Below the pieces are notes generated by a model. That model saw only the letters and a list, made by a program, of their open reading frames with translations, did not search any database and was not told the DNA's origin. Positions 13,621-63,654 of a DNA stretch of 64,000 bases are shown here, one piece after another. The stretch comes from Methylobacter sp. (GTDB lineage Bacteria > Pseudomonadota > Gammaproteobacteria > Methylococcales > Methylomonadaceae). Numbering within the stretch: the stretch's first letter is position 1; the number at the start of each line of letters is the position of its first letter. A program made the translations under genes and the position numbers. Where the stretch lies: NCBI GenBank assembly GCA_004299305.1, contig SCPZ01000109.1:44918-108917 (forward strand), written 5' to 3'.

Positions 13621-14951
13621 AACGATACCGTCAAGCCACCCTGAGTTTGGTTGTTGTTTTATTTGGCGCACCGCTTCAAGCAAACGACCTTCTTTCCGTC
13701 TATCAAGACGCTGCACGGGAAGATCCGCAACTGGAACGAGCGCGGGAATCCCTTGCCGCAATTCAGGAGACCCAGTCCCAGGCTAGTGCGGCGCTGTTTT
13801 TGCCCGAAGCGACCGCCACTGCCAACATCAATCAGGATTCCCAGAGCGTTCAGTTTAGTGGAGCGAGTGCAACAGGCGCCAGTGGACGCAGTCATTTTAA
13901 AAGTGGCGGTTATATGCTGAACCTGACACAACCGTTGCTGCATTATGACCGGATTATTGCTTGGCGGCAGGCGGACAGTCGCATTGCCCAGGCTGAAGCC
14001 GAATATGCCGCAGCAGAAATTGCACTGATGTTGCGGGTTGCCGAACGCTATTTCGACTTGCTTGCCGCCAAAGAAAACCTCCAGTTTGCCAAGGCGCAGC
14101 AGGAAACGCTGGGCCGCGGACTGAATGAGACCCGGCAGCGTCAAGCCGTGGGATTCCTAGCGATGACTGACGTGCAGGAAGCCCAGGCAGGATACGATCG
14201 GGCCTTGGCGGATACCGTTGAGGCCGAACATTTGCTGCGCGATGCGAAAGAAAGTTTGCAGGAAGTCACGGGCGCGGACTATGACCGGCTTGCCGCTTTG
14301 CGGGATGAAATACCGTTGGTCAAACCCGATCCAGCCATTGAGGAAGATTGGGTCGGTCAGGCATTGCGACAGAATATAGGACTGCTGGTCAGCGAACAGG
14401 CTGCGCAAATAGCAAAAGCGGCAATCGACATCCAGCAAGCCGGGCATTTGCCTACCTTGGATGCCGTCGGCAGTCATAGTTTTTCGACTTCAGGCGGGCG
14501 TTTCGGTACTGCGGATATTGAGGACAGTGTTGTCGGCTTGTCTCTGAACGTGCCGCTTTATCAGGGCGGACGCGTTAATTCAAGAACGCGGGAAGCTGAG
14601 CACCGCTATCGTGCTGCGCTTGCTACCTTAAAACAGGAACAGCGGGCGGTGCATCGGGCCGCCAGCAACGCCTTTCTGGGCGTGGTGGCGGGTATCAGCC
14701 GGGTCAGTGCCTTGCAACAGACCTTGCGTTCAAGCGAGACCGGGGTCAATGCGACTGAAGCCGGTTTTAGAGCCGGTCGCCGCACCGCGCTGGATGTTAT
14801 CGTCGCCGAGCGCGAACGGCTGCGCGCGCAAAAAGACTATGCCCGCGCCCGTTACGATTATTTGCTTAACACGTTGCGCTTGAAACAGGCGGTAGGGACA
14901 TTATCGCCCGCTGATCTTGCGCAGGTTAATGAGTGGCTTGAAGCTACTTAG
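13617..14951 (+). CDS. TolC-family outer-membrane efflux protein
   Basis: MKRYR signal peptide starts at an ATGA overlap with the RND stop; DLLSVYQDA, LPTLD, GRRTALDV, ARYDYLLNTLRLKQAVGTL. Confidence 0.93.
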   Translation: MKRYRQATLSLVVVLFGAPLQANDLLSVYQDAAREDPQLERARESLAAIQETQSQASAALFLPEATATANINQDSQSVQFSGASATGASGRSHFKSGGYMLNLTQPLLHYDRIIAWRQADSRIAQAEAEYAAAEIALMLRVAERYFDLLAAKENLQFAKAQQETLGRGLNETRQRQAVGFLAMTDVQEAQAGYDRALADTVEAEHLLRDAKESLQEVTGADYDRLAALRDEIPLVKPDPAIEEDWVGQALRQNIGLLVSEQAAQIAKAAIDIQQAGHLPTLDAVGSHSFSTSGGRFGTADIEDSVVGLSLNVPLYQGGRVNSRTREAEHRYRAALATLKQEQRAVHRAASNAFLGVVAGISRVSALQQTLRSSETGVNATEAGFRAGRRTALDVIVAERERLRAQKDYARARYDYLLNTLRLKQAVGTLSPADLAQVNEWLEAT

Positions 14952-15074
14952 GAATGAGGCACGAAATAACTTAGGCAAGTTGCCAATAGTCGGAGTGCAG
15001 GCTTCGCCTGCGTGCGCAAGCAAAGCTTGCACTCCTGCCGCATACAGTTGTCCACTTTATTTCATGCTCGTTCC
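14951..15074. mobile_element. MITE shell type F1 (GGAATG.GCACGAAATAACTT ends), 124 bp
   Basis: TTA duplicated at 14948-50 and 15075-77 around GG...CC. Near-complete reverse-complement copy at 48461-48605. Left end overlaps the tolC stop. Confidence 0.85.
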
Positions 15075-15077
15075 TTA

Positions 15078-15343
15078 GGAATGCGCACGAAATAACTTGA
15101 ACAGATAACATCCCTTGAAGGGATGGTAAGTATTCAGAGCCCTTGGCTTCATGCGGTTGGCTTAGCCATTAAATGGTTCGTTTAGAATTTTATGGCTAAA
15201 ACATCCTATTGAAAAATATATTGTTACCCCAAGACCTTCCAGGTTTTAAAAACCTGGAAGGTCTAAATATACGGTCGGGGTCTGAATAGTTACAAGGGAT
15301 GTTATCTGTAAATTGGCTGTATGAGTTATTTAATTTTCATCCC
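15078..15343. mobile_element. Second F1 MITE in tandem, containing a palindrome interrupted by an F3 MITE
   Basis: Left end GGAATGCGCACGAAATAACTT, degenerate right end AGTTATTTAATTTTCATCCC, TTA on both sides (15075-77, 15344-46). Confidence 0.65.
15126..15293. mobile_element. MITE shell type F3 (IS66-like ends) carrying a 33-bp palindrome
   Basis: Ends GTAAGTATTCAG...CTGAATAGTTAC; perfect 8-bp duplication AAGGGATG (15118-25, 15294-301); internal AGACCTTCCAGGTTTT-A-AAAACCTGGAAGGTCT. Confidence 0.9.
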
Positions 15344-15438
15344 TTAGTATTCAGTCTGTATTCGTAAGCGATTGCGTAATATGCCGGAATTATTATTCTG
15401 GTTGAAATATATATCAATTTCATCTGTAAGGTTTATAT

Positions 15439-16809
15439 ATGGCTAATATTGTTTTTTGCTTTCCTCCCATAACCAGTACTATTAATTCGAGTTTACGATT
15501 GGCTAGGCTGCTAAAAAGCGGGGGGCATAACGTTAGCTATATTGGAATTCTTGATTGTAAGTCCAATGTGCGCGCCAATGGATTTGATTTTTTTTCAGTA
15601 TATGAAAAATGGTTTCCGAAGGGGTGGTTTGATGATTATTTCGTAAAATCACAATCTTCACTTGATAGCGAACATACTATTAAAAGAGATGTTGCTGGTA
15701 ATTTTAATGACTTTTTAAATTACATTATCAATGGCGGGGATAGTGAACTGGCTTTAATATTAAAAGATATAAAACCGGATATTGTTCTTATATCGACATC
15801 GGGTATTGATTCTGTCGTTTGGGCTTTACTGATGCATAAGATGAATTACAAAAGTATTTATGTTTTTGATATTTTGGGAGGTGTGGTAAATCATACCGTC
15901 CCTCCGGTGCATACCGGATTAATTTCAACTGGCAGTTTATGGTCATCGCTAAAGACTTTGTTGGTATGGTGTGTTTTTTATTTTAAAAAAATAAAAATAC
16001 AAAAAATTTTAACGAAAAACGGTTTTGATATTTTTTCGAATAAAAAAATACTCGGACTGGCTGATTATTGTCGATATCCATCCGAAGATATTAGCTTTTT
16101 TAATGATATGTCCGGTCCGCTGTTAAAGTTGCCTGAATTGGTTCTTTTTCCAAAACGCTTTGATTTTCCAGGGGTAAAAAAGACAGGGCGATATTATGCC
16201 GAGGCTTCAATTGATTTAGACCGGGAGCAAGCTTCTTTTCCTTGGGAGAAAGTAATTGAATCGCAACCTATCGTGTATGCGGCATTAGGCACTCTTCCGT
16301 TATTGGCTAAAGCCGATTATGAAAATTTCTTTCGCATAGTGATAGACGCATCACTCAAGTGGCCTGAATGGAATTGGGTGCTCTCGATTGGTAATAATTT
16401 GACGGTGGATGATTTTGAGTCTGTTCCTGCTAATGTGATTATCGTCAATCGTGTCCCACAGCTGGAGTTGTTAAAAAAAGCATCATTAATGATTACTCAC
16501 GGAGGGCCTAATTCCGTTAAGGAATGCATATTTTTTGGCGTCCCAATGATAGTTTTTCCGTTATGGTTTGATCAGCCCGGCAATGTGGCAAGAGTGACTT
16601 ATCATGGCTTAGGTCTGAAAGGCGACTTTAAGACAATTACCGCCAAAGAATTACAGGATCTTATAGAAGAAGTGACTGTTAATCCTGAATTCAGGGAACG
16701 TACAAAAGCCATGCAAAAATATTTTATCGAAACTGAACAAGCCAAACCCAGCCTACAGTTAATTGAAAGATTTATAATGCAAGCTAATATTCCGCCTTTT
16801 TTGGATTAA
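15439..16809 (+). CDS. Family-1 glycosyltransferase, copy 2
   Basis: Same motifs as copy 1; nt 16132-16777 are ~98% identical to 6571-7216, while the 5' half is diverged. Confidence 0.92.
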   Translation: MANIVFCFPPITSTINSSLRLARLLKSGGHNVSYIGILDCKSNVRANGFDFFSVYEKWFPKGWFDDYFVKSQSSLDSEHTIKRDVAGNFNDFLNYIINGGDSELALILKDIKPDIVLISTSGIDSVVWALLMHKMNYKSIYVFDILGGVVNHTVPPVHTGLISTGSLWSSLKTLLVWCVFYFKKIKIQKILTKNGFDIFSNKKILGLADYCRYPSEDISFFNDMSGPLLKLPELVLFPKRFDFPGVKKTGRYYAEASIDLDREQASFPWEKVIESQPIVYAALGTLPLLAKADYENFFRIVIDASLKWPEWNWVLSIGNNLTVDDFESVPANVIIVNRVPQLELLKKASLMITHGGPNSVKECIFFGVPMIVFPLWFDQPGNVARVTYHGLGLKGDFKTITAKELQDLIEEVTVNPEFRERTKAMQKYFIETEQAKPSLQLIERFIMQANIPPFLD

Positions 16810-16873
16810 TTTTGGATTAATTAATGTAGTCAATACAGCTCTTTATGTTATTCAATTAATGTTGAGGGGCGTT

Positions 16874-17038
16874 GTAGATATTCAGCCCCTTAGCGCCATA
16901 CGGTTGGCTTAACCATTAAACGGTTCGTTTAGAATTTTATGGCTAAATCATTCTATTGAAAAATATATTGTTACGCCAAGACCTCCCAGGTTTTAAAAAC
17001 CTGGAAGGTCTAAATACGGTCGGGATCTGAATAGTTAC
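16874..17038. mobile_element. F3 MITE, direct-repeat sister of 15126-15293
   Basis: About 17 differences over ~165 nt by manual alignment; ends GTAGATATTCAG...CTGAATAGTTAC; target duplication not clean. Confidence 0.8.
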
Positions 17039-17171
17039 TAGGAGGCGTTGCCTCAATTGTGTCCGGATAGCTTGCCGATTTTAAGTCGAATCGGGTGTTT
17101 GTAAAGATTATTGCCATAAATTCAAATGGCAGACGGGATGCAAACAAATCCCGTCTCTGTTCATTCTCGGG

Positions 17172-17390
17172 CTATTGCGATGCCGTTTGTTGCATATGTA
17201 TCTGTAAGCTTAGCGGACGCATATCGGTCCAGGCTTCTTTGATGTAATCCAAACATTCCTGTTTGTTGCCGGTTTTGCCGACCGTTCGCCAGCCGCCCGG
17301 TATTTCTTTGTATTCCGGCCAAATTGAATATTGTTCTTCGTGATTGACCACAACTTGGTAAATAGTCGTATCTTCGTCGTCCCAAGCCAT
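17172..17390 (-). CDS. mbtH: MbtH-like NRPS accessory protein
   Basis: [15 protein letters not shown]...IPGGW...[17 protein letters not shown] signature; GGAG RBS before ATG 17390. Confidence 0.97.
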
Positions 17391-17488
17391 TGTTTTTCTC
17401 CGTTGATAGGTAATTGTTGTAAATAACCATGCCATTTATTGCGATGGCTTGGTTTCCGTAGAGTAGACGATAGAAGCGCTAGAATACC

Positions 17489-17992
17489 TCACAGGTCCAA
17501 TCGTTGGTTTTTGAAATGCTTACGGCAGTGCAGCAGCGCTTTGGCTATATGTTTTTCAACGGAGCTGTCGGATATGCCGAGTTCCTTGGCGGTTTCGGTA
17601 TAGGTCATGCCGTAAACTCTATTCAGGACAAATATTTCTCGGGTGCGCAACGGCAACTCCTCAAGTATCAGGGTAATGGCGGCTAACCTTTCATTGACGG
17701 ATGCAAGTTTTTCGGCAGAGGGAAATTCGCTTGGCGGGGGGAGGGTTTGTTCTTTGGTTTGCTGGTAATTTTCCGTTACTTTTCGATGCTTGATGTGGTC
17801 GTAAGCGAGGTTTTTAGCAATTCGGAACAGAAAGCCGCGCGGATGATCGATAGTTTGTTTTTGCGCTTCACGGAAAAAAATAATGAAGCTTTCTTGAGCG
17901 ATGTCGGCGGCTATATCAGGGCAGTCGACAATCCGAGTCAAATGAAACTGCAACTCAGACCGGTGATTTAAATAAATGGCTTCTATGTTCAA
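17489..17992 (-). CDS. ECF sigma factor, FecI/PvdS/FpvI (iron-starvation) class
   Basis: AADIAQESF, FLFRIAKNLAYDH, LEELPLRTREIFVLNRVYGMTYTETAKELGIS..VEKHIAKAL. Confidence 0.92.
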   Translation of the reverse strand: MNIEAIYLNHRSELQFHLTRIVDCPDIAADIAQESFIIFFREAQKQTIDHPRGFLFRIAKNLAYDHIKHRKVTENYQQTKEQTLPPPSEFPSAEKLASVNERLAAITLILEELPLRTREIFVLNRVYGMTYTETAKELGISDSSVEKHIAKALLHCRKHFKNQRLDL

Positions 17993-18905
17993 GATTAAAT
18001 CCCTCTTTTATTATTGTTAGGAATATTTATTTTGCTGTTCCGGCGGCATCTGAATAAGGGCGCTATGGCTTCCCGTGCTTGGGCTTTCAAGCCTATCCGT
18101 TAAGCGTGTAGCGAATCCAGTCTACATGGAGGTCATGGACCGACATCCACGGAACTGGATATCCGTTTCCCGGTCGGCATGACGGGTTACTTGGATATTT
18201 GTGAAAGATCAGGGCTTGAGCTTGGAAATTAGCGAGCATATGTGAGTCCATATTTCTTATTTACCCCGCTCCTGTACGATGCGTAGGGTATTGAATAAGC
18301 CGAGTCTGCACGGCAAGTTAAGTTGCCGTCCAATATGTCGTTATGTTTGTTGTCGATGCTTAAAGGCATGTGTTTGGTATGGAAGTCTATTTGAGATGCT
18401 CTGTTACTTTGCACTCGGCGATGCGGTGATTGATACATTACTCTGGCTGCTTTTATTTTGTAAAGCAATGAATATGCCAGATTTTTGTTATAGTGATTTC
18501 AATTGTTTGTCTATAAGTGCAGGATATGAATTTGAAAGAAGCGGCATATAACGTATTTACAATGCGTTATATAACATAGTTTTTTAAGCGAGGCGCGGAC
18601 GTCGCTACTGCGAACGGTGTGATTACGGGGGGAAGCAAGTTTAAGGCTGGGCGATTTTACAGATAATATCCTTCAATCCCAGCGTAGATTGCTTGCCTGA
18701 TTAGCGCATAAGGGATACGGATTTTTTTCATGAACCTGGCAATCGGGGTCATATTAGGCAGTATTTTTGGCGGAGCGGATGAGGTTAAAACGGCCTTAAA
18801 GCGTCCTATTATTGGGCCTGATTTGGCTTTGAGGCCTGATATGCGGCATAGGTTTTGTTCTAACGCATTGAATTGTGTATCCGCGAGCTTAAAGGAAAAT
18901 ATTTT

Positions 18906-20531
18906 ATGTTAGTTTTTTTGTGCCGCTCTTCCTGGCTAACGATAGTCGGCGTACTGCTTACCGGCATTATCAGCGGATTATGCAGTGCCGCTTTGGTGGC
19001 GGTAATTAATTCGACATTGTCGAATACCTTAGATGTCAGGCTTTTACCGTGGTTGTTTGTCGGCCTGTCTGTTGCGGTATTGTTCAGCGGTTTTTTATCG
19101 CATTATCTGCTCAACAGGCTCAGCGCTAAAATTGTCTGTGATCTTCGTATTCAAATCAGCCGATTAATACTCGCCGCACCCTATCCTTATCTGCAAAAAC
19201 TCGGCAAGTCGGCATTATTGACTAACCTGACCGAGGACATCACTGCGATTGCCAATGCCAGTCAATTATTGCCGATAGTTTGCATTAATTTTGCGGTCGT
19301 AGCAGGCAGTATGGCCTATCTGAGCTGGCTATCCTGGCAGTTGGCCCTGGTTTTGGCCGGAGTGATTGTATTCGGAGTCTTGAGCTCCAGTTTATTCAGG
19401 GAGTGGCCGAAAAAAGCCGTACTCAAGGCGCGGGAGGAATACGATGTGCTCAGCGGCGATTTTCGGGCCTTGACGGAAGGCGTCCGAGAGCTGAAATTAC
19501 ACAAGCAGCGTAGCGATGCGTTTATGGCGCAGTCGCTGGCGGCCAGCGCCGAAGCCTATCGCCGATACTCTTTTCGGGGAGCGGTGAGTTATTTGCTGGT
19601 TAATCAATGGGCGCAGCTTCTGTATTACTTGGCCATAGGTGTGATCCTCTATGTTTTTCCGGTTTGGCAGGTTATCGATCAGAAGGTGATCGGCGGTTAT
19701 ACCTTGGTATTTTTGTTTATGATGTCGCCGTTAACCATACTCACTAACAGTTTGCCGGTGTTTAGCCGTGCCAATGTGTCGTTGCAAAAAGTCCGGCAGC
19801 TCGGCGATCAGCTCAATAGCCGGATTGTACCGGCTGATACAGCCGATACATCGGAGGCTTGCGCGGGCTTTTCCGGGTTGTCGCTACAAGGCGTGACGCA
19901 TAGTTTTCATCGGGAAAAGGAAAATCGTAATTTTACCTTGGGGCCTGTCGACCTGGACTTTAAGTCCGGGGAACTGGTGTTTTTGATCGGCGGCAACGGC
20001 AGCGGCAAGACTACGTTGGCAATGTTGCTGATAGGGCTCTATATGCCCGAGCAAGGGATTATTCGTTGGAATGGAAAGATCGTCGACAACGCTAACAGGG
20101 ATGATTATTTACAAAACTTCTCGGTGATTTTTTCGGATTTTTATTTATTCGACGAGCTGTATGGGGTCGATAATGGGAATATCCTGGTCGCCGATTATTT
20201 GCAACGCTTGCACTTACATCATAAGGTGCAGGTTGAGAATGGCCGGTTTTCCTCGGTGAATTTGTCGCAAGGCCAGCGTAAACGTCTGGCGCTGTTGGTC
20301 GCTTATCTGGAAGATCGGCCTTTTTACGTTTTCGACGAATGGGCGGCGGATCAAGATCCCGAATTCAAACACTTATTCTATACGGAGCTGTTGCCGGCCT
20401 TAAAAAAACGCGGCAAAACAGTGTTGATTATCAGTCATGACGATCGCTATTTCTATTTGGCGGATCGCTGTATCAAGCTGGAAGAAGGCCGGATTATAGC
20501 CATCGAAAAGCCGGTAGCAGTCGGCAATTAG
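18906..20531 (+). CDS. Cyclic-peptide export ABC transporter (PvdE/SyrD/YojI family)
   Basis: 6-TM domain fused to an NBD; GGNGSGKTT, LSQGQRKRLALL, VFDEWAADQDPEFK, ISHDD. Confidence 0.95.
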   Translation: MLVFLCRSSWLTIVGVLLTGIISGLCSAALVAVINSTLSNTLDVRLLPWLFVGLSVAVLFSGFLSHYLLNRLSAKIVCDLRIQISRLILAAPYPYLQKLGKSALLTNLTEDITAIANASQLLPIVCINFAVVAGSMAYLSWLSWQLALVLAGVIVFGVLSSSLFREWPKKAVLKAREEYDVLSGDFRALTEGVRELKLHKQRSDAFMAQSLAASAEAYRRYSFRGAVSYLLVNQWAQLLYYLAIGVILYVFPVWQVIDQKVIGGYTLVFLFMMSPLTILTNSLPVFSRANVSLQKVRQLGDQLNSRIVPADTADTSEACAGFSGLSLQGVTHSFHREKENRNFTLGPVDLDFKSGELVFLIGGNGSGKTTLAMLLIGLYMPEQGIIRWNGKIVDNANRDDYLQNFSVIFSDFYLFDELYGVDNGNILVADYLQRLHLHHKVQVENGRFSSVNLSQGQRKRLALLVAYLEDRPFYVFDEWAADQDPEFKHLFYTELLPALKKRGKTVLIISHDDRYFYLADRCIKLEEGRIIAIEKPVAVGN

Positions 20532-20717
20532 AAAGTTGAGCCGCTGATGAGCGACAGGTTATACAGCAATTTTTTGCAGCGCTATTTGAGAGAGGCGCAA
20601 GCTGGCGTGGCATAATGTCTTATTAGTGTTTATCTGTGTAAATGTGTGCTTGACTAAAGTTTTTTAAGGTTATTGAAAATCAGCATCTACTGGGTAGTAA
20701 CAATTCCATAATATTGG

Positions 20718-23135: not shown

Positions 23136-23267
23136 TAAACGGCAGGTTTTAAGCAGAATAGACATTATGGAACGTAACGCTTCAGTGATTTCAACGGCTC
23201 GGCGCTTTTGTTGCAGATTGTTTTCGGGCCACGGGGAGCTTTCCATGCATAAACCGAGTAGTTACTT

Positions 23268-24248: not shown

Positions 24249-24251
24249 TGA

Positions 24252-24451
24252 GGCAACTCGCAAAAAATAAACTACCACACCCTATAATCTTGATAACTCA
24301 GCAGCTAGAAAAATGGAACACGGATGACGCGGATTAAACAGATTATCACTGATAAAACAATTAATTATGTATATTAAAAAATCCGTTCAAATCCGTCTCA
24401 TCCGTGTTCTATTGTATTTAATTTAGGTATTTTTATTTATTGCGAATTGCC
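24252..24451. mobile_element. MITE shell type F2 (GGCAACTCGCAA.AAATA ends) with CACGGAT/ATCCGTG hairpin cargo
   Basis: TGA duplicated at 24249-51 and 24452-54; terminal IRs GGCAACTCGCAAAAAATAAA / TTTATTTATTGCGAATTGCC; sits right after the fecR stop. Confidence 0.85.
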
Positions 24452-24552
24452 TGAGGGTTTTGAGTTATTTAAGGTGGGACGATTTTACAGGTAGCATTCC
24501 TCAAAACGATGTTGCCTGTCTTGCTTAGTTGGTAGCTCGTGTTGTTCAATAA

Positions 24553-24651
24553 GGAATGCGCACGAAATAACTTTGACAACTAGCTCCCTCTCCTGCTGGA
24601 GAGGGCTGGGGTGAGGAGAATAAAATACATAAGTTATTTCAGGCACATTCC
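24553..24651. mobile_element. F1 MITE with CCCTCTCC..GGAGAGGG..GGGGTGAGG REP-like cargo
   Basis: TAA duplicated at 24550-52 and 24652-54; IRs GGAATGCGCACGAAATAACTT / AAGTTATTTCAGGCACATTCC. Confidence 0.85.
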
Positions 24652-24659
24652 TAAATGAC

Positions 24660-24688: not shown

Positions 24689-24693
24689 CGGCT

Positions 24694-24954
24694 ATGATTA
24701 AGAGCTACCGGCATAAAGGTATCCAACAATTTTTTGAAACCGGCTCGAAAGCCGGTATTGCAGCGGAACATGAAGCAAAATTGGCCTTGCTTAATGTGGT
24801 CAAAGGCCCGCTTGAAATGGATGTGGCAGGCTGGAAGTTGCATCAACTAAAAGGTGAACTGGCCGAACATTGGGCGGTAAAAGTAAGCGGCAACTGGCGG
24901 CTCACATTCACGTTTGAAGGCGAAGATGCAATTTTGGTTGATTACCAAGATTAG
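24694..24954 (+). pseudogene. higB: HigB (RelE/ParE killer-protein family) toxin, truncated at its last two codons by a MITE
   Basis: MIKSYRHKG...WKLHQLKG..HWAVKVSGNWRLTF.F...VDYQD. Removing the element restores CAA GAT TAT CAC TGA (QDYH*). Confidence 0.85.
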
Positions 24955-25111
24955 GCGATTTCCTGCGAAAAATATACCCACCTGACTGGTCTTTTTGTCC
25001 GTCTGCTGCGTTGTAAAAATGGTTGCATAGCTCGCTATGCGCCCATTTTTACGCCTTGCAGACGAACAAAAATCCTGCGTCATTTGGGTATATTTATTCT
25101 TGGCAATCGCC
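24954..25111. mobile_element. MITE shell type F4, 158 bp
   Basis: TTA duplicated at 24951-53 and 25112-14; IRs GGCGATTTCCTGCGAAAAATATACCC / GGGTATATTTATTCTTGGCAATCGCC; 5 differences from the inverted copy at 63497-63654. Confidence 0.92.
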
Positions 25112-25133
25112 TTATCACTGACAGGTGTTCGAT

Positions 25134-31424: not shown

Positions 31425-31595
31425 GTAACTATTCAGCGTATGCTAAAAATGATTAATGGAACACGGATGCCAAAAGTAGGCGCCTCTAGGCGACACTGAT
31501 TAAACGGATAATCACCGATTAAAAGCACAGAATATTTTAAAAAATCCGTGTAAATCCGTCCTATCCGTTCCATTTCTTTTTCGCTGAATAGTTAC
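31425..31595. mobile_element. F3 (IS66-like) MITE with CACGGAT/ATCCGTG cargo
   Basis: GTAACTATTCAGC...GCTGAATAGTTAC; flanks ATTTGCCC / ATTTGCCA (7 of 8 match). Confidence 0.88.
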
Positions 31596-38201: not shown

Positions 38202-38474
38202 TTGTCCACGAAAAGCACGAAAAATAGTTTGAGCAAAACTTTGTGTATTACCGGAGTACAAGGCTGGCCTTGTACGTGTCAATCGTTCAAAGCCAGCTTT
38301 GCCTACATGGATGCAGGAGGTAGAGCAATGCAGGAGCAATTGCCGAGGCGACACAGATAGGACGGATTTACACGGATTTTTTAAAATATTCTGTGCTTTT
38401 AATCAGTGATTATCCGTTTAATCAGTGTCGCCTAGAGGCGCCTACTTTTGGCATCTCGTGCCTTTCGTGGACAA
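38202..38474. repeat. Composite hairpin element between convergent nudix and gcvP
   Basis: Outer IR TTGTCCACGAAAAGCACGAAA / TCTCGTGCCTTTCGTGGACAA. It encloses the TGCAGGAGGTAGAGCAATG module (38303-38346) and a ~110-bp module that is the reverse complement of the cargo at 31465-31570. Confidence 0.75.
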
Positions 38475-42688: not shown

Positions 42689-42907
42689 ATGTCTGATTTT
42701 AAAAAATACCAGTGCCTGGAATGCGAGCATATCTATGATGAAGCCAAAGGCGACCCCGACAGTGGTATTGCAGCGGGAACCCGCTGGGCGGATATTCCCG
42801 ATAGCTGGGATTGCCCGATATGCGGCGCTCCCAAAAGTTTTTTCAAGTTATCGGCAATTGCTCCCTGCATTGCTCTACCTCCTGCATCCATGCAGTCGAT
42901 GGAATAA
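42689..42907 (+). CDS. Rubredoxin with a repeat-derived C-terminal tail
   Basis: CLEC..YDEAKGDPDSGIAAGTRWADIPDSWDCPICG; the last ~18 codons come from the repeat at 42851-42898. Confidence 0.92.
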   Translation: MSDFKKYQCLECEHIYDEAKGDPDSGIAAGTRWADIPDSWDCPICGAPKSFFKLSAIAPCIALPPASMQSME

Positions 42908-43658: not shown

Positions 43659-43814
43659 GTAACTACTCAGGGCTAATTTTATAATAGAACACGGATGACA
43701 CAGATTTAAACGGATTTTAAAGAGTCGATGGACAGCCCATTCATTGGTTTTATCCGTGTTTATCAGTCTAATCCGTGTCATCCGTGTTCCATTTTCTATC
43801 TGCTGAGTAGTTAC
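43659..43814. mobile_element. F3 (IS66-like) MITE
   Basis: GTAACTACTCAG...CTGAGTAGTTAC with perfect 8-bp duplication GAAATGAG (43651-58, 43815-22), which includes the upstream stop codon. Confidence 0.92.
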
Positions 43815-48407: not shown

Positions 48408-48683
48408 ACGTCATTCCGGCAGGGATTGCCGGTATCCAGAAGCCAGGGATGGCAATCTTAGGAACGAGTATGAAATAAAGTGGACAACTGTGTGCGGCAG
48501 GAGTGCAAGCTTCGCCTAAAGCGCCTACTGTTGGTGCTTGCGTATGCAGGCGAAGCCTGCACTCCGACTATTGGCAACTTGCCTAAGTTATTTCGTGCTC
48601 ATTCCTTAGATCACATCCATGCATTGCTCTACCTCCTGCATCCTTGCAGTCGTGGATACCGGCAGTCCATGCCGGTATGACGT
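48408..48683. mobile_element. Nested element: ACGTCATTCCGGCA..TGCCGGTATGACGT hairpin module interrupted by an F1 MITE (48461-48605)
   Basis: Inner element has TTA duplication at 48458-60 and 48606-08 and is the reverse complement of 14951-15074; the outer arms recur at ~57405-57592. Confidence 0.85.
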
Positions 48684-51747: not shown

Positions 51748-52477
51748 ATGCTATGTTGTAACTTGGCTTTAGGTAACGCGCAGACAATAAACTACCTCTT
51801 GACACCTTGGCAGCTAGAAAAATAGAACACGGATGACACAGATAAGACGGATTTACACGGATTTTTTAGAATATTCTGCGCTTTTAATCAGTGATTATCC
51901 GTCCTATTCTGTGTCGCCTAGAGGCGACTACTTTTGGTATCCGTGTTCTATTGTATTTAACACGGTATTTTATTTATTGCGAGTTGCCTTAGTCGTGTCG
52001 GCTGTCTTGTGTCCATGGAATTACAGCGCTGCCGAAGAGTCGACCGGTCGGGAATTGCAAATTAAGGTTGCGTATTTATATCATTTTACCAAGTTCACCG
52101 AATGGCCGTCCGTATCGCCGGTTTTTCATTACTGTGTTTACGAGGATGCTGATTTTACTAATTTGTTACGGCAAAGCTACAGCAATAAAACCATAGGCGA
52201 AGCGAGCATTGAGGTCAAAAATATCAACGCCCAAACCAAGCTGGACGACTGTCAATTGATTTATTTTTCTCAAGCTGTGCCTGCCGGTTTCTTGGAAAAG
52301 ATCGGTAAACTCGCTATCTTATCGGTTGGCTCGCAGCAAGATTTTACAGAATTAGGGGGAATTATTTACCTGTTTGAAGAAGATCAAAAATTGCGTTTTT
52401 TTGTGAATAATGCAGCGGCAAGCAATGTCGGCTTGAAAATCAGCTCACAATTGATCAAGCTTTCCAAGGAACCCTAA
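51748..52477 (+). CDS. YfiR-family (DUF4154) periplasmic protein whose signal peptide is interrupted by a MITE
   Basis: ELQIKVAYLYHFTKFTEWP, LRFFVNNAA..GLKISSQLIKLS. Removing 51772-51991 gives in-frame MLCCNLALVVSAVLCPWNYSAA. Confidence 0.85.
51772..51988. mobile_element. F2 MITE with CACGGAT/ATCCGTG cargo
   Basis: TTA duplicated at 51769-71 and 51989-91; right IR TATTTATTGCGAGTTGCC, left IR degenerate GGTAACGCGCAGACAATAAA. Confidence 0.85.
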
Positions 52478-57192: not shown

Positions 57193-57323
57193 CAAGGGTT
57201 AGAAAGTTACAGGGTAACTACTTCTATACTCGACAAAAGCCGCAATCCGTACCCGTGTCGAATATAATTTCATGCTCTTCGTGGGTACTAAAAAATGTTA
57301 ATTGACTTTTGAACGACTACTTA

Positions 57324-57674
57324 GGCAACTCGCAATAAATACCCCTTAGCCCGAATAGTTCCCACGCCGGAGCGCTCATCGTTATACACAAGTATTTCAA
57401 AGCACGTCATCCCGGCAGGGATTGCCGGGATCCAGAAGCCATGGATGGCATGCTGAAGTAGGCAACAAGTCTCGCTACAGGAGTTGCTCAATGAAATCAA
57501 GCATTCACATCCCTGTGCTCTCGGCAACTGCTCCTGCGTTGCTCTACCTCCTGCATCCTTGCAGTCGTGGATCCCGACAATCTGCCGGGATGACGGTGTC
57601 TCCCAGACACTTGTGTATAACGATGAGCGCCGGAGCGTGGGAACGATAAGGGGGATTATTTATTGCGAGTTACC
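57324..57674. mobile_element. Multi-layer nested F2 MITE, 351 bp
   Basis: TTA duplication at 57321-23 and 57675-77. Inner IRs GTTCCCACG..CTCATCGTTATACACAAGT / ACTTGTGTATAACGATGAG..CGTGGGAAC, then GTCATCCCGGCA / CCGGGATGAC, then the CTACCTCCTGCATCC module. Confidence 0.88.
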
Positions 57675-57742
57675 TTAGTTACGTTACAGGTATGCGTTGT
57701 AAATTTGCTTTGTCAATATAACGCCCTATAATTGCGCCTTGC

Positions 57743-57928
57743 TTTCAGGTTCCAGAGGGTTTTTCAGACCTAATGGTTAAACGGGAAGTCGGTAAGGTTT
57801 AGACCAAATCCGACGCTGCCCCCGCAACGGTATATAAGTAAAAGCTTCATCGGGATGCCACTGTGCTTACGCATGGGAAGGTGATGATTCAGGTTAACGC
57901 CACTTATAAGCCCGGAGACCGGCCCGAA
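57743..57928 (+). ncRNA. Cobalamin (B12) riboswitch
   Basis: AAACGGGAAGTCGGT..AATCCGACGCTGCCCCCGCAACGGTA, GCCACTG..GGGAAGG and AAGCCCGGAGACCGGCC, upstream of a BtuB-like gene. Confidence 0.95.
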
Positions 57929-58058
57929 AGTGTAATTCGGTACAGCGGAGGGCTGTCAGCGAAAATGACAGTCCCCAGCTCCGCGTCATCTCTCGTTTTC
58001 TTTAGTCCTCTGTTGTGTAAATCAACCATCATGCGCGGGCGGCGCAGAGAGGACAACC

Positions 58059-59882
58059 ATGCAAAAACTCATTTTCGGCTCATTATTTCTCACGGGTTTT
58101 AATACCCAGTTACATGCGCAGGAAACTGTGCAAAACCTCCCTGATATGCTAGTTACGGCCACACGAACACAGACGGCTAAAAACCAGCTGTCGGCTGCGG
58201 CGACCGTATATACTCGAAAAGACATTGAACGCCTCCAAGCTAAAACCTTGCCTGAACTGTTACGCGGTACGACTGGGATCGACATGGCACAAAGCGGCGG
58301 TTACGGGAAAGATACCAATATTTACCTGCGCGGAACTAATTCCGACCATGTACTGGTGTTGATTGACGGCATTAAGGTCGGCTCTATTACTTCCGGCACG
58401 ACCCCCTTTCAACTCATTCCTATCGACCAGATCGAGCGGGTGGAAATTATTCGAGGGCCTCAATCGAGTCTATACGGTTCTGAAGCGATAGGCGGGGTTA
58501 TCCAGGTTTTTACCCGCAAAGGCGGGCAGGAGGATAAGCCCAGCGTTACTATGGATGCAGGCGGCGGCTCTTATGATACTTACCGCGCTGCCGGTTCTGT
58601 CAGCGGTCAATGGAAAAACAGCTGGTATAGCTTGGCTTCGTCGCAGTTTGGTTCCCAGGGTTTTAATGCTCGGCAGCCTATTAAAGGTTTAAACCAACCC
58701 GACCAGGACGGTTACCTGAACACGGCGCTGAATGCCCGCTTAGGTCATCGGTTTAACAACAATGCCGAAATTGAGGCGTTTTTTATGCGGGCTGAAGGGA
58801 AAAACGAATATGACGGTACTTTCCAAAATAAGACGGAATTTGTAGAGCAAACCGTTGGCACTACAGCCGTCATGAACATTGTCGATAACTGGCGCTCAAT
58901 ACTGCGCTTGGGGCAAAGCCGCGACGAAGGAGACAACTTTGCGCCTAACGGGGCCTTTTCCAGCAGCTTTAACAGCACCCGTTGGAATGCTAGCTGGCTG
59001 AATGAAGTTGCATTGTCCGATAATCATCAACTGGTTATTGGCTCCGACTACCGTTTGGATCAGGTCGACAGCTCAACCGTCTACAATGAAAGTTCCCGCT
59101 ATGATGCGGGCATTTTTACCGAATTGCACAGTTGCATTCTAAATGGTCATTTTATCAACGCATCGGTACGCGGAGATAAAAATGAAGCTTTTGGCGAGCA
59201 GCTGACCGGCAACTTCGGCTGGCGATATAACGGAAACTACGGTATCAGCCCGTTTGCCAGCTTTGGCAATGCGTTTAAAGCGCCGACCTTTAATCAGCTT
59301 TATTTTCCAGGGTTCGGTAATCCCTCGCTGAAAGCCGAGCAATCGACGTCTTTCGAAGCGGGGCTGGCCGGTGACCATGATTGGCTGCAATGGGAACTTC
59401 GCGGCTATCATACCAATATCGATAATTTGATCGTGAACGTCACCAACCCGACAACCTTTCTATTCAGCGCGGAAAATATCGGTAAAGCGCAAATTGACGG
59501 TATTGAAGCTGAGATCGGAACTCAGTTGATGGGCTGGAGCAACAAATTGAACATGAACCTGTTAAGCCCTAAAAGCAGGGAGTCCGATCTGCGGCTGCCG
59601 CGCCGGGCCGAAAAAACCTTGTCTTATGATTTATATCGTTCATTCGGACAGTTCGATCTAGGCGCCAATGTACTGGCCCAAGCCGAGCGTTTTGACGATA
59701 CATTGAACAAAACCAAGGTCGCCGGTTATGTAACTGTCGATTTACGTACAGCCTACCATTTAAATAAAAACTGGATGCTGAGTGCAAAGCTGAACAACCT
59801 GTTGGATAAACCCTATCAAACAATCAACACCTACAATAGCGCAGACCGGAATTTCTTTCTTTCAATCCACTACAACAACTAA
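58059..59882 (+). CDS. btuB: Vitamin B12 TonB-dependent receptor BtuB
   Basis: DMLVTATR TonB box, SGGYGKDTNIYLRGTNSDHVLVLIDG, GPQSSLYGSEAIGGVIQVFT; lies under a B12 riboswitch. Confidence 0.93.
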   Translation: MQKLIFGSLFLTGFNTQLHAQETVQNLPDMLVTATRTQTAKNQLSAAATVYTRKDIERLQAKTLPELLRGTTGIDMAQSGGYGKDTNIYLRGTNSDHVLVLIDGIKVGSITSGTTPFQLIPIDQIERVEIIRGPQSSLYGSEAIGGVIQVFTRKGGQEDKPSVTMDAGGGSYDTYRAAGSVSGQWKNSWYSLASSQFGSQGFNARQPIKGLNQPDQDGYLNTALNARLGHRFNNNAEIEAFFMRAEGKNEYDGTFQNKTEFVEQTVGTTAVMNIVDNWRSILRLGQSRDEGDNFAPNGAFSSSFNSTRWNASWLNEVALSDNHQLVIGSDYRLDQVDSSTVYNESSRYDAGIFTELHSCILNGHFINASVRGDKNEAFGEQLTGNFGWRYNGNYGISPFASFGNAFKAPTFNQLYFPGFGNPSLKAEQSTSFEAGLAGDHDWLQWELRGYHTNIDNLIVNVTNPTTFLFSAENIGKAQIDGIEAEIGTQLMGWSNKLNMNLLSPKSRESDLRLPRRAEKTLSYDLYRSFGQFDLGANVLAQAERFDDTLNKTKVAGYVTVDLRTAYHLNKNWMLSAKLNNLLDKPYQTINTYNSADRNFFLSIHYNN

Positions 59883-59902
59883 TCTTTAAGAGGAACAACA
59901 TT

Positions 59903-60472
59903 ATGAACATGAAACAATGGCTGCAAGTCGAGTATTTACCTATTTCCCTGATTGCGTTGATGGTGCTGACACGCTTTCACCATTTTGGTGATGTATTGCA
60001 TCTGCCCGATGCTTCATTGGCCGCTTTTTTCTTTGCCGGTTTTTACCGCAAAAAGATCTTGTTTCCCTTTTTGCTGGTTCTGGCCGGATTGATTGACACC
60101 ATCGCCATCGCAAACGGCGTCAGCAGCTGGTGTGTATCGCCCGCCTACGTTTTCCTGATTCCTACCTATGCGGTCATGTGGTTTGCGGGGCGCTATTGCT
60201 CGACGTTTAAATCGTTGAAAATCACTGAACTGGCAATGCAGTTTGGCGTGGTGACGCTGGCGACATCGATTGCATTTGCTATTTCAAACGGCAGCTTCTA
60301 TGTGTTTTCAGGTCGTTATCTGGATATATCCTGGGCTCAGTATTTTGCACGGGTAGCCCTGTATTATCCGCCTTATGTCAGTTCCGCCCTGCTTTATGCG
60401 GTTTTGGGTTATGGTATTATGACGTTGGTCAAGGCATTCCCTGCTTTAGCGATTGGACATAAAGACGTCTAA
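59903..60472 (+). CDS. btuM: BtuM-type solitary S-component cobalamin transporter
   Basis: LTRFHHFG..LPDAS, ID.IAI, WCVSPAY, FYVFSGRY match the recalled Thiobacillus denitrificans BtuM motifs (TRSHHW, LPDAS, CVSPAY, FYSGRF). Confidence 0.88.
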   Translation: MNMKQWLQVEYLPISLIALMVLTRFHHFGDVLHLPDASLAAFFFAGFYRKKILFPFLLVLAGLIDTIAIANGVSSWCVSPAYVFLIPTYAVMWFAGRYCSTFKSLKITELAMQFGVVTLATSIAFAISNGSFYVFSGRYLDISWAQYFARVALYYPPYVSSALLYAVLGYGIMTLVKAFPALAIGHKDV

Positions 60473-60501
60473 AAGATCAAGCAGTGCAAGGTATTATTTT
60501 C

Positions 60502-60526
60502 AAGCCTCCGGCTTTGTCGGAGGTTT
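60502..60526. terminator. Terminator hairpin after btuM
   Basis: AAGCCTCCGGC-TTT-GTCGGAGGTTT followed by Ts. Confidence 0.7.
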
Positions 60527-60568
60527 TTGGCCTGGGGGTGTCTATGTGATTTAAGACGGAACAACCAA

Positions 60569-61765
60569 TCACTCAGCCCGCAAAGCCTCCAACGGTTCCA
60601 ACCGCGCGGCCTTCATTGCCGGTGCTACTCCGGCGGCTATGCCGATCAGCAATGAGGCTATAAAGGCCGCAACGATATAGCCCCAAGCCAGTTCCACCGG
60701 TAAGGCGGGTAGTGCGATACCGAGAATCTTGACTATGCTTATGCCCAGCAATACGCCACATAGCCCGCCTGTGGCGCTTAATGCCAATGCCTCGCACAGG
60801 AACAGCTGGAAAATGGTTCTGCGTTCTGCGCCTACTGCGCGCAGCAGGCCGATTTCTGAAATTCTTTCGGAAACGGCGATGGTCATGATGGTTAGTATGC
60901 CGACCGAGCCGACCAGCAACGAAATGCTGCCCAAGGCTGCTACCGCCAGGGTCAGGATGTTCAGGATGGAATCCATGCTTTTCAGCATTTGGTTCTGGGT
61001 GACGAGGGTGAAATCTTCGCTGCCGTGCCTAGCAATCAACTGTCGTTTGATGGCTTTTTCTACGCCGGAAACAGCGGCATTACTTTTATAGAGCAGGTGG
61101 ATTTCCATCAGGCTTTCCCTGTCGAACAATTCCAGCGCTTTGGCAGCCGGGATGTAGATAGTGTCATCCATGTCGAAGCCGATCATCTGGCCTTTTTTTT
61201 CCATTACGCCGATAACCCTAAAACGGTCGCTGCCTATCCTGATGCGTTGGCCTAGCGGGCTTTTGGTTCCGAACAATTCGGTCGCCAATTTATTGCCCAG
61301 CACTGCAAAGGCGCGCGGATTGCTTTCTTCTTCCGGTAAAAAGCGCCCGCTGCTGGTTTTGATTGTCCATATTACCGGCACGGCTGAACCGACTCCCAGC
61401 ACGTTGGTGCGCCGCTGTTTTTCCCCTGCTTCAATGCGCGCATTGCCTTGCACCATCGGGGATGCGGCAATGATGTTTTCCACTTTGCTTAAGCTAACCA
61501 CATCGGCAAGGACCAACGGTCTAACCGTGCTTATCGATGCGCCGGACATGCCGAAGGTGGTGGTTTTTCCGGGATGAACGCCGATCAGGTTGGTGCCGAA
61601 CTGGGTGAATTCAGACAACACAAAGGTATGGATGCCCCGGCCTATCGAGGTTAACACGACTACCGCCGCGATGCCGATAATCAGTCCCAATGCGGTCAGC
61701 GATGAGCGCAGTTTGTGGCTGATAACCGTTCGGTAGGATAATGAGATCAGGTCGGCGTAGCGCAT
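60569..61765 (-). CDS. MacB/FtsX-type ABC permease 2
   Basis: MRYADL start at 61765; LRSSLTALGLIIGIAAVV, VSERISEIGLLRAVGA, PAMKAARLEPLEALRAE. Confidence 0.92.
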   Translation of the reverse strand: MRYADLISLSYRTVISHKLRSSLTALGLIIGIAAVVVLTSIGRGIHTFVLSEFTQFGTNLIGVHPGKTTTFGMSGASISTVRPLVLADVVSLSKVENIIAASPMVQGNARIEAGEKQRRTNVLGVGSAVPVIWTIKTSSGRFLPEEESNPRAFAVLGNKLATELFGTKSPLGQRIRIGSDRFRVIGVMEKKGQMIGFDMDDTIYIPAAKALELFDRESLMEIHLLYKSNAAVSGVEKAIKRQLIARHGSEDFTLVTQNQMLKSMDSILNILTLAVAALGSISLLVGSVGILTIMTIAVSERISEIGLLRAVGAERRTIFQLFLCEALALSATGGLCGVLLGISIVKILGIALPALPVELAWGYIVAAFIASLLIGIAAGVAPAMKAARLEPLEALRAE

Positions 61766-61769
61766 ATTT

Positions 61770-62975
61770 TTACCGCTTCGCCAAGGCGGCGACAGGATTG
61801 AGATTGGCCGCTTTCCTGGCCGGTAATACGCCAAACAGCAGCCCGGTAAATAACGACACAGCCAATGCGGCAAGCAGCGCCCAGGCCGGCAGTTCCATAG
61901 GAAAATCAGGGTACAAAGCCTGCAAAACGCCAAGCGTTAGGTAACCCAATAGTACGCCCAGCACGGCCCCGGCCAGCGATAACATCGCCGCTTCGCTCAA
62001 AAACAGCCACAGTAGTTGCCGTTTGGTCGCGCCTAATGCTTTCAGTAGGCCGATTTCTGCGGTGCGTTGGGTTACGCTGACCAGCATTACATTCATTACC
62101 AACACACCGGCCACCGCCAGGCTGATTCCGGCGATACTGGCTACGGTCAGGGTCAATGCGGTCAATATCTTGTCGAAAGTGCTGACCACGCTGTCTTGGG
62201 TAATCAGGGTGATGTCGTCTTCGCCTTCATGGCGGGCCTTGATAATTGTCCTGATTTCATCGACTGCCTTGTACATATCCGGCTTCGATTTGGCTTCAAT
62301 CAGCACTCTGAATAATGAATGGGTATCAAATAAAGCCTGCGCGGAAGCTACTGGTATGATCACGATTTCGTCAAAATCGATGCCGACCGATTGTCCTTCC
62401 GACGCGAGTACGCCGATCACTCGAAAACGCCGGTCATTGATGCGTAGCCATTGCCCAAGCGCCGGTTGATTGGCAAACAGTTGATTGCGTATGGTTTGGC
62501 CGATCACGCAAACCGACAGGGCCTTGTCGATCTCGGTTTGGGGTAGAAAGCTCCCCTGTGCCATTGTTAAGTGGCGTACCCGTCTTAATGCGTATGTTGA
62601 ACCTACGATATTGGTTTCCCGCTCCAATCCTTGCGAAGAGGCGGGGGCGGAACCTATGGTCAGCGGGGCGATGGCGGCAATATGATGACTGCGAAATAAT
62701 GCCTCGGCATCGTCCAGCGTTAAATCCCTGGGGGTTTCGCCAAACATCGGCGGCGGTCCGCCCGTGGTTTCGGTGCGTCCCGGCAACATAATAACCAGAT
62801 GCGTACCTAAGGCTTCAAACTCATTAACCACATAACGGCGAGCGCTTTCGCCCAAAGTCGTTAACACGGAAACCGAAGCGATGCCGATGCTCATGGCCAG
62901 GATAATCAACGCCGCACGTAAGCGCTGAGTATTGAGTGCGGCTAAGGCTTGGGTTAATGTGTCTTTAATAAACAT
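61770..62975 (-). CDS. MacB/FtsX-type ABC permease 1
   Basis: LAMSIGIASV, VMNVMLVSVTQRTAEIGLLKALGA, PARKAANLNPVAALAKR. Confidence 0.92.
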   Translation of the reverse strand: MFIKDTLTQALAALNTQRLRAALIILAMSIGIASVSVLTTLGESARRYVVNEFEALGTHLVIMLPGRTETTGGPPPMFGETPRDLTLDDAEALFRSHHIAAIAPLTIGSAPASSQGLERETNIVGSTYALRRVRHLTMAQGSFLPQTEIDKALSVCVIGQTIRNQLFANQPALGQWLRINDRRFRVIGVLASEGQSVGIDFDEIVIIPVASAQALFDTHSLFRVLIEAKSKPDMYKAVDEIRTIIKARHEGEDDITLITQDSVVSTFDKILTALTLTVASIAGISLAVAGVLVMNVMLVSVTQRTAEIGLLKALGATKRQLLWLFLSEAAMLSLAGAVLGVLLGYLTLGVLQALYPDFPMELPAWALLAALAVSLFTGLLFGVLPARKAANLNPVAALAKR

Positions 62976-63496
62976 GATTTACCTGATTCGGTTCTACTTT
63001 ATTTAGGGGCTTTGGTTATCAAGGTCTGTTGTGGTGTTTTAAGAATAACCCTCGATATAATTTTTAAAAAGACGCAAAAAATACAAAAAACCTTTAAATA
63101 ACAAGTCTTAATGATTTTTTATGGTTTGGGGGTGTATTGACATACTGTGATGAGTGGCGGTATAAATAATAAGTTTTTAAACGGGTCAAGAAATACGGTC
63201 ATGTCGTTAGTCGACACCGTCATAAAAAAATCCCCACACCGCCGATTCAGGTCCCGCGTTGTTATATTAAGTTCAGTGTCTACAGCAACGCAGAAAACAT
63301 GTCAATGCAAGATTTCAGATAAGAAAATACATTAAATAATAAACCGTTTAAATTTTATACATAAAACCTTAAAGAAAGTAAAATACAGCGGCTATGATAT
63401 AGGCACTGCAATAATTGGTAGTTTGTTTGTCTTAAAAAGACGTTCGAACGGATGCGCTTTCGATCTTAATTTTATAGTCTTACTTAATTGTGTTAA

Positions 63497-63654
63497 GGCG
63501 ATTGCCAAGAATAAATATACCCAAATGGCGCAGGATTTTTGTTCGTATTCAAGGCGTAAAAATGGGCGCATAGCGAGCTATGCAACCATTTTTACAACGC
63601 AGAAGACGGATAAAAAGACCAGTCAGGTGGGTATATTTTTCGCAGGAAATCGCC
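63497..63654. mobile_element. F4 MITE, inverted relative to 24954-25111
   Basis: TAA duplicated at 63494-96 and 63655-57; 153/158 identical to the higB copy by manual comparison. Confidence 0.92.

Follow-up and report, generated by a model that had tools for sequence, protein, structure and literature searches.

Miniature inverted-repeat transposable elements (MITEs), nested MITEs and mobile insertion cassettes such as MIC231 of the Bacillus cereus group contain no transposase, have the ends of an insertion sequence (IS) family, are flanked by a target duplication and are amplified in trans; they can carry unrelated internal DNA and insert into one another. Pneumococcal BOX elements are assembled from boxA, boxB and boxC modules in varying combinations, and Rickettsia palindromic elements, attributed to Ogata et al. 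in 2000, are reportedly tolerated in frame within protein genes. Here we describe a repeat system in a 64,000-nt window (the whole stretch of DNA that was analysed, C130:44918-108917) of a Methylobacter draft genome (4.49 Mb, 144 contigs, 48% G+C). In this system, short transposon-end shells, which we name F1, F2 and F4 (GG-ended) and F3 (GTAA-ended, with subfamilies F3-A, F3-B and F3-C), occur with a cargo hairpin, C, with further repeats, X and Y, and with two mini-inserts, Q and P. The draft genome as a whole holds several hundred such tiny transposon-derived repeats, one nested within another, and the repeats of the window are common to named Methylobacter genomes, for example that of Candidatus Methylobacter oryzae. 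The system is real and is a variation on nested and composite MITEs, with a foldback of a GxxExxY nuclease cassette as its common core; it is apparently undescribed, and we found no description of such composites for Methylobacter or in general.

Like MITEs and mobile insertion cassettes, the elements of the window are short and transposase-less, have IS-type ends with duplications, enclose internal DNA and nest. They differ in that the interior is a second kind of repeat, the nuclease-cassette foldback, which is also found free and in shells of both IS66 and IS5 type, and in that no intact partner IS was found. BOX elements share the modular build in varying combinations, but their modules are without IS ends and target duplications and without a link to a nuclease cassette. 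The in-frame positions of Q in rubredoxin and histidine-kinase genes recall the Rickettsia elements, although Q is only 47-48 nt long, is not a long palindrome, nests in other repeats and has a core 20-mer spread across many gammaproteobacterial families.

Two further systems tie a small gene to a short, abundant repeat. For repetitive extragenic palindromes (REPs), REPINs and their RAYT genes a replicator view has been developed (bioRxiv 10.1101/2021.07.10.451892). C resembles these in its high-copy palindromic doublets, in the single-copy gene flanked by the same repeat, in the absence of target duplication and in long-term vertical persistence; however, the gene of C encodes a PD-(D/E)XK (GxxExxY) protein of ~130 aa and not an HUH Y1 transposase, and the arms of C are phased arrays of 9-10-nt units. 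The Ssn GIY-YIG nucleases, for which biochemistry exists (PMC11893778), and their NTS repeats likewise join a small nuclease gene to a short repeat that numbers hundreds of copies; homologues are numerous, and each has a sequence of its own. The nuclease fold is a different one, however, no riding of NTS repeats within transposon ends has been described, and GxxExxY proteins are known from sequence.

We consider it probable that the repeats form a three-layer population of non-autonomous elements in which composites of shell and cargo are moved by the transposase of the shell and new combinations are rare. The first layer would consist of conventional MITEs that DDE transposases mobilise in trans, F1, F2 and F4 fitting IS5 and F3 fitting IS66; the second of foldback hairpins, namely C, with arms of phased CACGGAT units, and X, which appears similar with CACGAA units; and the third of the 47/48-nt Q and 22/23-nt P, which would be precise, duplication-free inserts into all other layers and into genes. 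In a composite, C has IS66-type or IS5-type ends on either side, and hairpin and shell are transposed together by the transposase of the shell, a step that we regard as shown by the evidence given below. New shell-cargo combinations would probably arise only rarely, by nesting or capture and by recombination within the conserved hairpin arms, each then being amplified as a subfamily.

Composites of shell and cargo

The original prediction, made from the sequence of the window, was that hairpins hitch-hike between transposon ends, and this is borne out by the target duplications around whole composites and by an orthologous empty site. An exact 8-bp duplication is kept around 15 of 24 F3 shells holding C and around 7 of 12 holding C with P, and 7 of 8 F2 shells with C (with or without P) retain a TWA duplication. 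One IS66-type composite of the window, F3d (43659-43814), is precisely absent from four sister species (G014, G009, G018 and G019), as had been hoped for from sister genomes: the flanks are joined there, and the GAAATGAG-like 8-mer is present once. An empty site of this kind is direct evidence for the insertion of a composite, hairpin included, through a cut with an 8-bp stagger, and, taken with the shell-type duplications, it means that the composites move as units. GxxExxY-type hairpins can thus be carried by unrelated transposon ends, which explains how they can spread although no transposase of their own is obvious.

The contexts of C were tallied for 140 cleanly paired copies, from about 170 hairpins in the genome overall. 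Unique DNA flanks 57 copies on both sides (41%; shell-free), while 20 copies lie in F3-B shells, 15 in F3-C shells and 22 in three variants of F2; five of the 140 are in hybrid shells that join halves of different classes (K0/K2, K0/K1 and K3/K9). When interiors were clustered at 90% identity or above, cluster 1 (C with P) was found in three F3-B shells, three F2 shells and once free, clusters 0, 2, 3 and 4 likewise occurred in two or more contexts, and the 15 F3-C copies contained 11 different clusters. The cargo is therefore tied to no single shell: closely similar copies occur in IS66-type shells, in IS5-type shells and outside any shell. Other interiors are also shared, the CCCTCTCC..GGAGAGGG hairpin core by 12 F1, 7 F3 and 1 F2 shells, and GTTCCCACGC-type repeats by F2, F1 and F4 shells. 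The free interchange of shells and cargo that had been proposed is supported as far as this modularity goes, but a large share of the C copies is shell-free and part of the pattern is plain nesting (F3a in F1b, F1d in Y, and Q and P). F3a, with its duplication AAGGGATG, splits a small hairpin of F1b that stays intact in other F1 copies, and F1d lies within Y between TTA duplications. A few founding events, once followed by amplification and recombination, are enough to give a population of repeats the look of free combination.

Genome-wide, we counted ~97 F1, ~90 F2, ~202 F3 and ~152 F4 end tokens. The elements have the hallmarks of MITEs, being 80-350 bp long with terminal inverted repeats and high copy number and with no transposase open reading frame (ORF) within any end pair. 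Read outward, 71 of 90 F2 ends and 138 of 152 F4 ends abut TTA or TAA. An exact 3-bp duplication surrounds 28 of 37 paired F1 ends, 16 of 17 paired F2 ends and 34 of 39 paired F4 ends (TTA or TAA for F4), and an exact 8-bp duplication surrounds 41 of 61 paired F3 ends; in control windows shifted outward the corresponding numbers were 1 (F1), 0 (F2) and 0 (F3), so that the duplications are clearly more frequent than expected by chance.

As for the parent transposons, it had been proposed that the TNA duplications and GG ends fit IS5 and that the GTAA ends with 8-bp duplications fit IS66. The only good DDE_Tnp_1 match in the genome is a 255-aa ORF (C19:16602-17369; 182 bits on the NCBIfam model transpos_IS5_3, NF033580), a decayed IS5-family gene with a damaged C-terminus, which is followed by AAGTTATTTTATGCGCATTCC and TAA, that is, by an F1 right end and its target triplet (C19:16602-17482). 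The IS5 assignment thus stands for F1, while F2 and F4 are assigned by their GG ends and TWA duplication; all three would probably belong to the IS1031/IS427-like subgroup of IS5. The genome has a single IS66 match, to what is left of the C-terminal part of a transposase, located upstream of the window. About 100 bp downstream of this remnant lies GCTAAGGGGGCTGAATAACTAC, which corresponds to the end of F3-A elements together with their subterminal sequence; F3-A can accordingly be placed with IS66, but F3-B and F3-C have just the outer 12-14 nt in common with F3-A. The full-length IS5 and IS66 elements with matching inverted repeats that had been anticipated are thus represented by these two decayed copies, and F2 and F4 have none. 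Intact IS5_3 and IS66 genes are present in some sister genomes, all without F1-F4 ends, the IS5_3 copies there having GGTTCTGTTGACGTTT ends instead. No autonomous copies were found between paired ends, where the enclosed ORFs are ordinary genes (CheB, a LuxR-type regulator, a signal peptidase), and self-megablast revealed no long multicopy IS in the assembly.

In the window itself, end-motif matches far exceed expectation for F1 (4 observed, 0.01 expected), F2 (7 and 0.46) and F3 (11 and 2.8). The 13 shells that had been reported, most of them with exact duplications, were all located and their flanks read: 11 have exact duplications, F3c matches at 7 of 8 positions, and the duplication of F3b is imperfect and shifted. 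The shells and the repeats associated with them are as follows.

F1a, 14951-15074: IS5-type MITE with GGAATG... ends and core GGAGTGCAGGC...GCACTCC; TTA duplication (14948-14950 / 15075-15077)
F1b, 15078-15343: IS5-type MITE in the TTA of F1a, with TTA again at 15344-15346; its own core ACAGATAACATCCCTTGAAGGGATGTTATCTGT is split by F3a
F3a, 15126-15293: IS66-type MITE of subfamily F3-A without hairpin cargo, nested in F1b; exact 8-bp duplication AAGGGATG/AAGGGATG
F3b, 16874-17038: second F3-A copy; flanks GGGGCGTT / TAGGAGGC are a related 8-mer with a 2-nt shift, imperfect
F2a, 24252-24451: IS5-type shell with GGCAACTCGCAA... ends, TGA/TGA; cargo C at 24312-24413, with a decayed F3-like end GATAACTCAGCAGCTAGAAAAATG beside C
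F1c, 24553-24651: 99-bp IS5-type MITE with hairpin core CCCTCTCC..GGAGAGGG; TAA/TAA
F4a, 24954-25111: IS5-type MITE with GGCGATT... ends and its own core GTAAAAATGG...CCATTTTTAC; TTA/TTA
F3c, 31425-31595: IS66-type shell of subfamily F3-B; cargo C at 31455-31583 with a 23-nt P (31470-31492); ATTTGCCC/ATTTGCCA
X, 38202-38474: foldback repeat with CACGAA-unit ends (TTGTCCACGAAAAGCACGA); Q at ~38300-38346 joined to a C cut short at either end (38347-38455), which has P at 38429-38451
Q in rubredoxin gene, 42851-42898, minus strand: 48-nt mini-insert, in frame near the 3' end of the gene, adding SAIAPCIALPPASMQS; without duplication
F3d, 43659-43814: IS66-type shell of subfamily F3-C; cargo C at 43683-43793; exact 8-bp duplication GAAATGAG/GAAATGAG
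Y, 48408-48683: repeat with ACGTCATYCCGGCAGGGATTGCCGG ends; holds a partly deleted Q (~48620-48652, minus strand) and the nested F1d
F1d, 48461-48605: IS5-type MITE in Y; hairpin core with a P-type insert; TTA/TTA
F2b, 51772-51988: IS5-type shell with a degenerate left end; cargo C with P (51821-51952); TTA/TTA
F2c, 57324-57674: IS5-type shell, TTA/TTA; GTTCCCACGC-type inverted repeat (57350-57393 / 57609-57652) around a Y unit (57404-57597) with Q (57521-57567, minus strand)
F4b, 63497-63654: IS5-type MITE, of the F4a family in opposite orientation; TAA/TAA

A common cargo had been recognised in an F3 shell, an F2 shell and a third inverted-repeat pair, and the copies at 31455-31583, 51821-51952 (reverse complement) and 38336-38456 (reverse complement) indeed align closely over ~105 nt, loop included; those at 24312 and 43683, taken to be variants, belong to the same family. 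Two details of the earlier description need amendment. The third pair (38202-38474) does contain the cargo, but it is a CACGAA-unit foldback carrying a 47-nt insert and a truncated C, and the claim that F1 shells hold three unrelated cargos fails for 15078-15343, an F1 whose own small hairpin core was split by the nested F3. F1a and F1b (14948-15346) stand head-to-tail with one TTA in common (15075-15077), the duplicated target of F1a having served as the insertion site of F1b. F2c consists of four layers; directly after it, and before a BtuB-like receptor gene, lies a cobalamin riboswitch (57730-57941, 99 bits), which places the composite just upstream of a regulated leader. The gene content of the window is otherwise ordinary for a gammaproteobacterium (TonB receptors, an RND pump, TolC, GcvP, and BtuB with its riboswitch). 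Elsewhere in the draft, many contigs start or stop within F4, Q or Y repeats at a similar offset of ~93 (C129:93, C99:93, C55:93, C62:93; C91:1). The annotation of this genome is affected, as elements lie in or beside genes (rubredoxin, histidine kinase) and break the assembly.

The cargo hairpin and GxxExxY nuclease cassettes

C has inverted ends of its own, AATRGAACACGGATGACACGGAT, and arms of ACGGAT-type units ~9-10 nt apart, and it folds strongly (DNA z-scores of -6.5 and -5.9). It is a gene-less foldback of a ~500-bp (498-bp) GxxExxY (PDDEXK_3) nuclease cassette: the genome has a single PF13366/TIGR04256 gene, and C ends bound it exactly (C97:2841-3338), with a P insert in the left arm. 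X, with its CACGAA-unit ends, looks like the same kind of foldback.

The association extends far beyond Methylobacter. When one genome per species was scanned, a 19-mer of C, GAACACGGATGACACNGAT, was present in at least 119 loci, and Bacteroidota, Planctomycetota, Acidobacteriota, Gemmatimonadota, Leptospirales, Desulfobacterales and others are among the matches listed. In two Bacteroidota loci (L013 and L060) the C ends enclose a GxxExxY gene of ~125 aa (TIGR04256, PF13366), and in a third locus, L046, just the last 25 codons of such a gene are left between them. Eight other genomes with the 19-mer have 2-7 GxxExxY genes each. Across these eight, GAACACGGAT-type arms accompany 9 of 10 genes whose products are at least 55% identical to the Methylobacter protein and 0 of 20 at 50% identity or less, most of which have other unit arrays; for 26 of the 30 genes the flanking inverted repeats score above all 20 shuffles. 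Arm units of other GxxExxY genes include CACAGAG, GCACGAA, CGCAGAT and CACATAG. We found no paper describing a GxxExxY gene together with matching inverted unit-array arms.

The hairpins had been called REP-like, and a search for RAYT or GxxExxY genes flanked by the cargo had been suggested. A gene of the latter kind is so flanked (that on C97), whereas the RAYT-like genes here are flanked by a different repeat, and the REP-like designation does not hold for a cargo that comes from a GxxExxY cassette. The genome has six PF01797 (Y1) matches, two of them RAYT-like, on C141 and C27, and flanked by G+C-rich GGGGGTGTCGCTACGCTCAACCCCCGG-type repeats; none of the six has a C, Q or P within 2.5 kb. 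A RAYT link of the cargo is thus ruled out by the different repeats around the Y1 genes. The two RAYT-like genes, of ~150 aa (C141:28804-29142 and C27:4895-5233), are each bracketed by GCGACCCCGGCGGGGTCGC hairpins and CCGGGGGTTGAGCGTAGCGACACCCCCGGATGG-type repeats and form a separate REP-like system.

How shells and cargo may have come together

Because hybrid shells exist and identical cargo occurs in different shells, we infer that the combinations were founded by nesting or capture together with recombination within the arms. The decayed F3-like end beside C in F2 shells suggests that an older IS66-type composite may have become enclosed by IS5-type ends, and the hybrid shells and common interiors point to recombination within the conserved arms. 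Several observations weigh against the three-layer reading as a whole. Copies were counted by fuzzy motif matching, and the 144 contigs of the draft often break at these repeats; the repeats fragment the assembly, and the copy numbers are lower bounds. Neither the draft nor 25 genomes of the genus contain an intact transposase with F1, F2, F3 or F4 ends; current mobility is therefore putative. This genome has no cargo-less F3-B, F3-C or F2 shell, and an exact pattern detected none of the F3-C type among 41 genomes of the genus. Finally, the flanks of shell-free C copies show no clear target duplication, only an ambiguous AT, and in orthologous intergenic alignments the junctions of C are too diverged to read.

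That the F3-B, F3-C and F2 shells were seen only with C inside is what would be expected if, as the original prediction had it, IS66- or IS5-type ends arose or were recruited around pre-existing hairpins in the manner of mobile insertion cassettes, each shell class being born around its cargo. The short stretch of end sequence that F3-B and F3-C share with F3-A would fit such an origin, as would the gene-bearing cassette on C97, whose left flank is recognisably of the F3-C type. The right flank of that cassette matches weakly, however, and the decayed end in F2 shells argues instead for the nesting of an older composite, as the hybrid shells do for recombination, so that we find de novo capture somewhat unlikely. 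The same filled shells speak against the converse, that C is itself mobile, helped in trans by the GxxExxY nuclease, and prefers the centres of inverted repeats, the shells then being targets and not captors. Such insertion could explain why an identical C with P variant has the same outer boundaries (AATRGAACAC...GTGTTCYATT) in F3-B, in F2 and free of any shell, why 57 copies lie in unique DNA, why presence and absence vary among species at orthologous intergenic sites, and why, in other phyla, the flanks just beyond the conserved core are again inverted repeats. Yet there is no target duplication beyond the ambiguous AT, in the flanks of shell-free copies palindromy extends no further than 4 nt, and a single gene, for a nuclease whose activity is putative, would have to serve ~170 hairpins; we judge active insertion of C to be distinctly unlikely.

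The hairpin arms could also provide homology between dispersed copies, interiors and shell halves being swapped by gene conversion with no movement of cargo at all. The five hybrid shells, the diversity of interiors within the constant F3-C shell and the different unit types of sister species at orthologous sites (CACGGAT in place of CGCAGAT or CACGAA) are all in keeping with this, but the shell-free copies in unique DNA and the identical ends in different phyla are left unexplained; conversion would be complementary and not sufficient, and we consider it very unlikely to be the explanation by itself. Shell-free copies, which stand between an A-run and a T-run, do resemble candidate two-way intrinsic terminators, many lie just after stop codons, and their folding is strong, all of which would be understandable if the hairpins were retained because they serve the host, as two-way terminators or structured RNAs for instance, and were in MITEs incidentally. 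It is highly improbable that this is their nature, given that Rfam has no match and that the copy number, nesting, truncation and cross-phylum link to a nuclease gene look selfish. Pure chance or an artefact of assembly is ruled out by the shuffles, the target duplications and the conservation in sister genomes.

Outside GAACAC...GTGTTC, the 57 shell-free copies have flanks AAAAATR and YATTTTT, usually with CAT on one side and TAT on the other, which gives a hairpin with a T-run on both strands. Two apparent paralogous empty sites for C turned out to be artefacts of adjacent copies, which leaves none. At the orthologues of C102:7607-7712, C11:25128-25298 and C124:29290-29400 (L175-L186), the type of foldback differs by species at the same intergenic site: units are CACGGAT here and in G022, CACGAA (in one case with Q and P) in G039, G009, G011 and G018, and CGCAGAT in G022, while G021 has nothing. 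Either these sites directly behind stop codons are hot spots of insertion, or one unit type was swapped for another. With its many sequenced species, Methylobacter is a tractable genus for dating the movement of such hairpins.

The Q and P mini-inserts

Q and P, modules of 22-48 nt with precise, duplication-free insertion, pose a separate problem. Q is CGACTGCATGGATGCAGGAGGTAGAGCAAYGCAGGAGCARTTGCCGA; of its 111 full copies, 55 measure 47 nt, 26 measure 48 nt and 27, which carry P, measure 69-71 nt. Q recurs at identical sites within F4, F1, three Y variants, other hairpin repeats, C, P and Q itself, and the host contexts of Q or P number at least 12. Joining the two flanks of a copy reproduces Q-less paralogues (empty sites) in 70 of the 111 cases, often without gaps. 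Target duplication is absent, and the flanks favour A on the left (83 of 111) and G on the right (102 of 111). P, CCAAMAGTAGGCGCYTYTAGGCG, is 22/23 nt long, has ~68 copies and is inserted like Q, in C, Q and F1; its presence differs between orthologous C copies of two species. No split Q enclosing a gene was found.

In the rubredoxin gene of the window (42690-42907), Q lies in frame just before the last two codons. The corresponding site in G022, G010, G014 and G019 reads ...TTCAAGTTA joined directly to ATGGAATGA, without insert, and G025 has Q with a further 48-nt insert nested in it. Lengths divisible by three (48 or 69 nt) are enriched among the 18 Q copies in long ORFs (C63:13738, C45:25967, C94:2857, C41:22280 and others), with 13 copies against 3 of the commoner 47-nt form, and one copy adds DDCMDAGGRATQGAVA within a histidine-kinase-like frame. 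This suggests that frame-preserving Q inserts are tolerated in proteins.

In an even sample of 301 Gammaproteobacteria genomes from 271 genera, a core 20-mer of Q, TGGATGCAGGAGGTAGAGCA, was present with at most one mismatch in 28 genomes (27 genera), usually in 1-20 copies against 106 here; the reversed 20-mer, used as control, gave 0 everywhere. Within the genus, Q copies are 96-100% identical, compared with 72-85% for neighbouring genes. Rfam has no family matching C, Y or Q. The TwoAYGGAY RNA (RF01731), a candidate for Q and Y, gave no match at the gathering score in the window, nor at E values up to 10 in 57300-57700; the AUGGAU loop of the first hairpin of Q is the sole resemblance to that motif.

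We regard it as rather doubtful that two things hold jointly: that GxxExxY foldbacks gain mobility between IS66-type and IS5-type ends, their arms acting as hubs at which shells recombine, and that Q inserts precisely, without duplication or inverted ends, both within repeats and, with the reading frame kept, within genes. If the former is true, the target duplications and the orthologous empty site would be the first positional evidence that the widespread GxxExxY hairpin class moves. If the latter is true, Q would follow an insertion route outside the known IS, REP or intron mechanisms, its core 20-mer being present in about a tenth of the sampled gammaproteobacterial genera. At C15:35929-36020, three Q copies stand in direct tandem (...GCCGA followed by CGACTGCATGG...), the sole tandem Q array seen.

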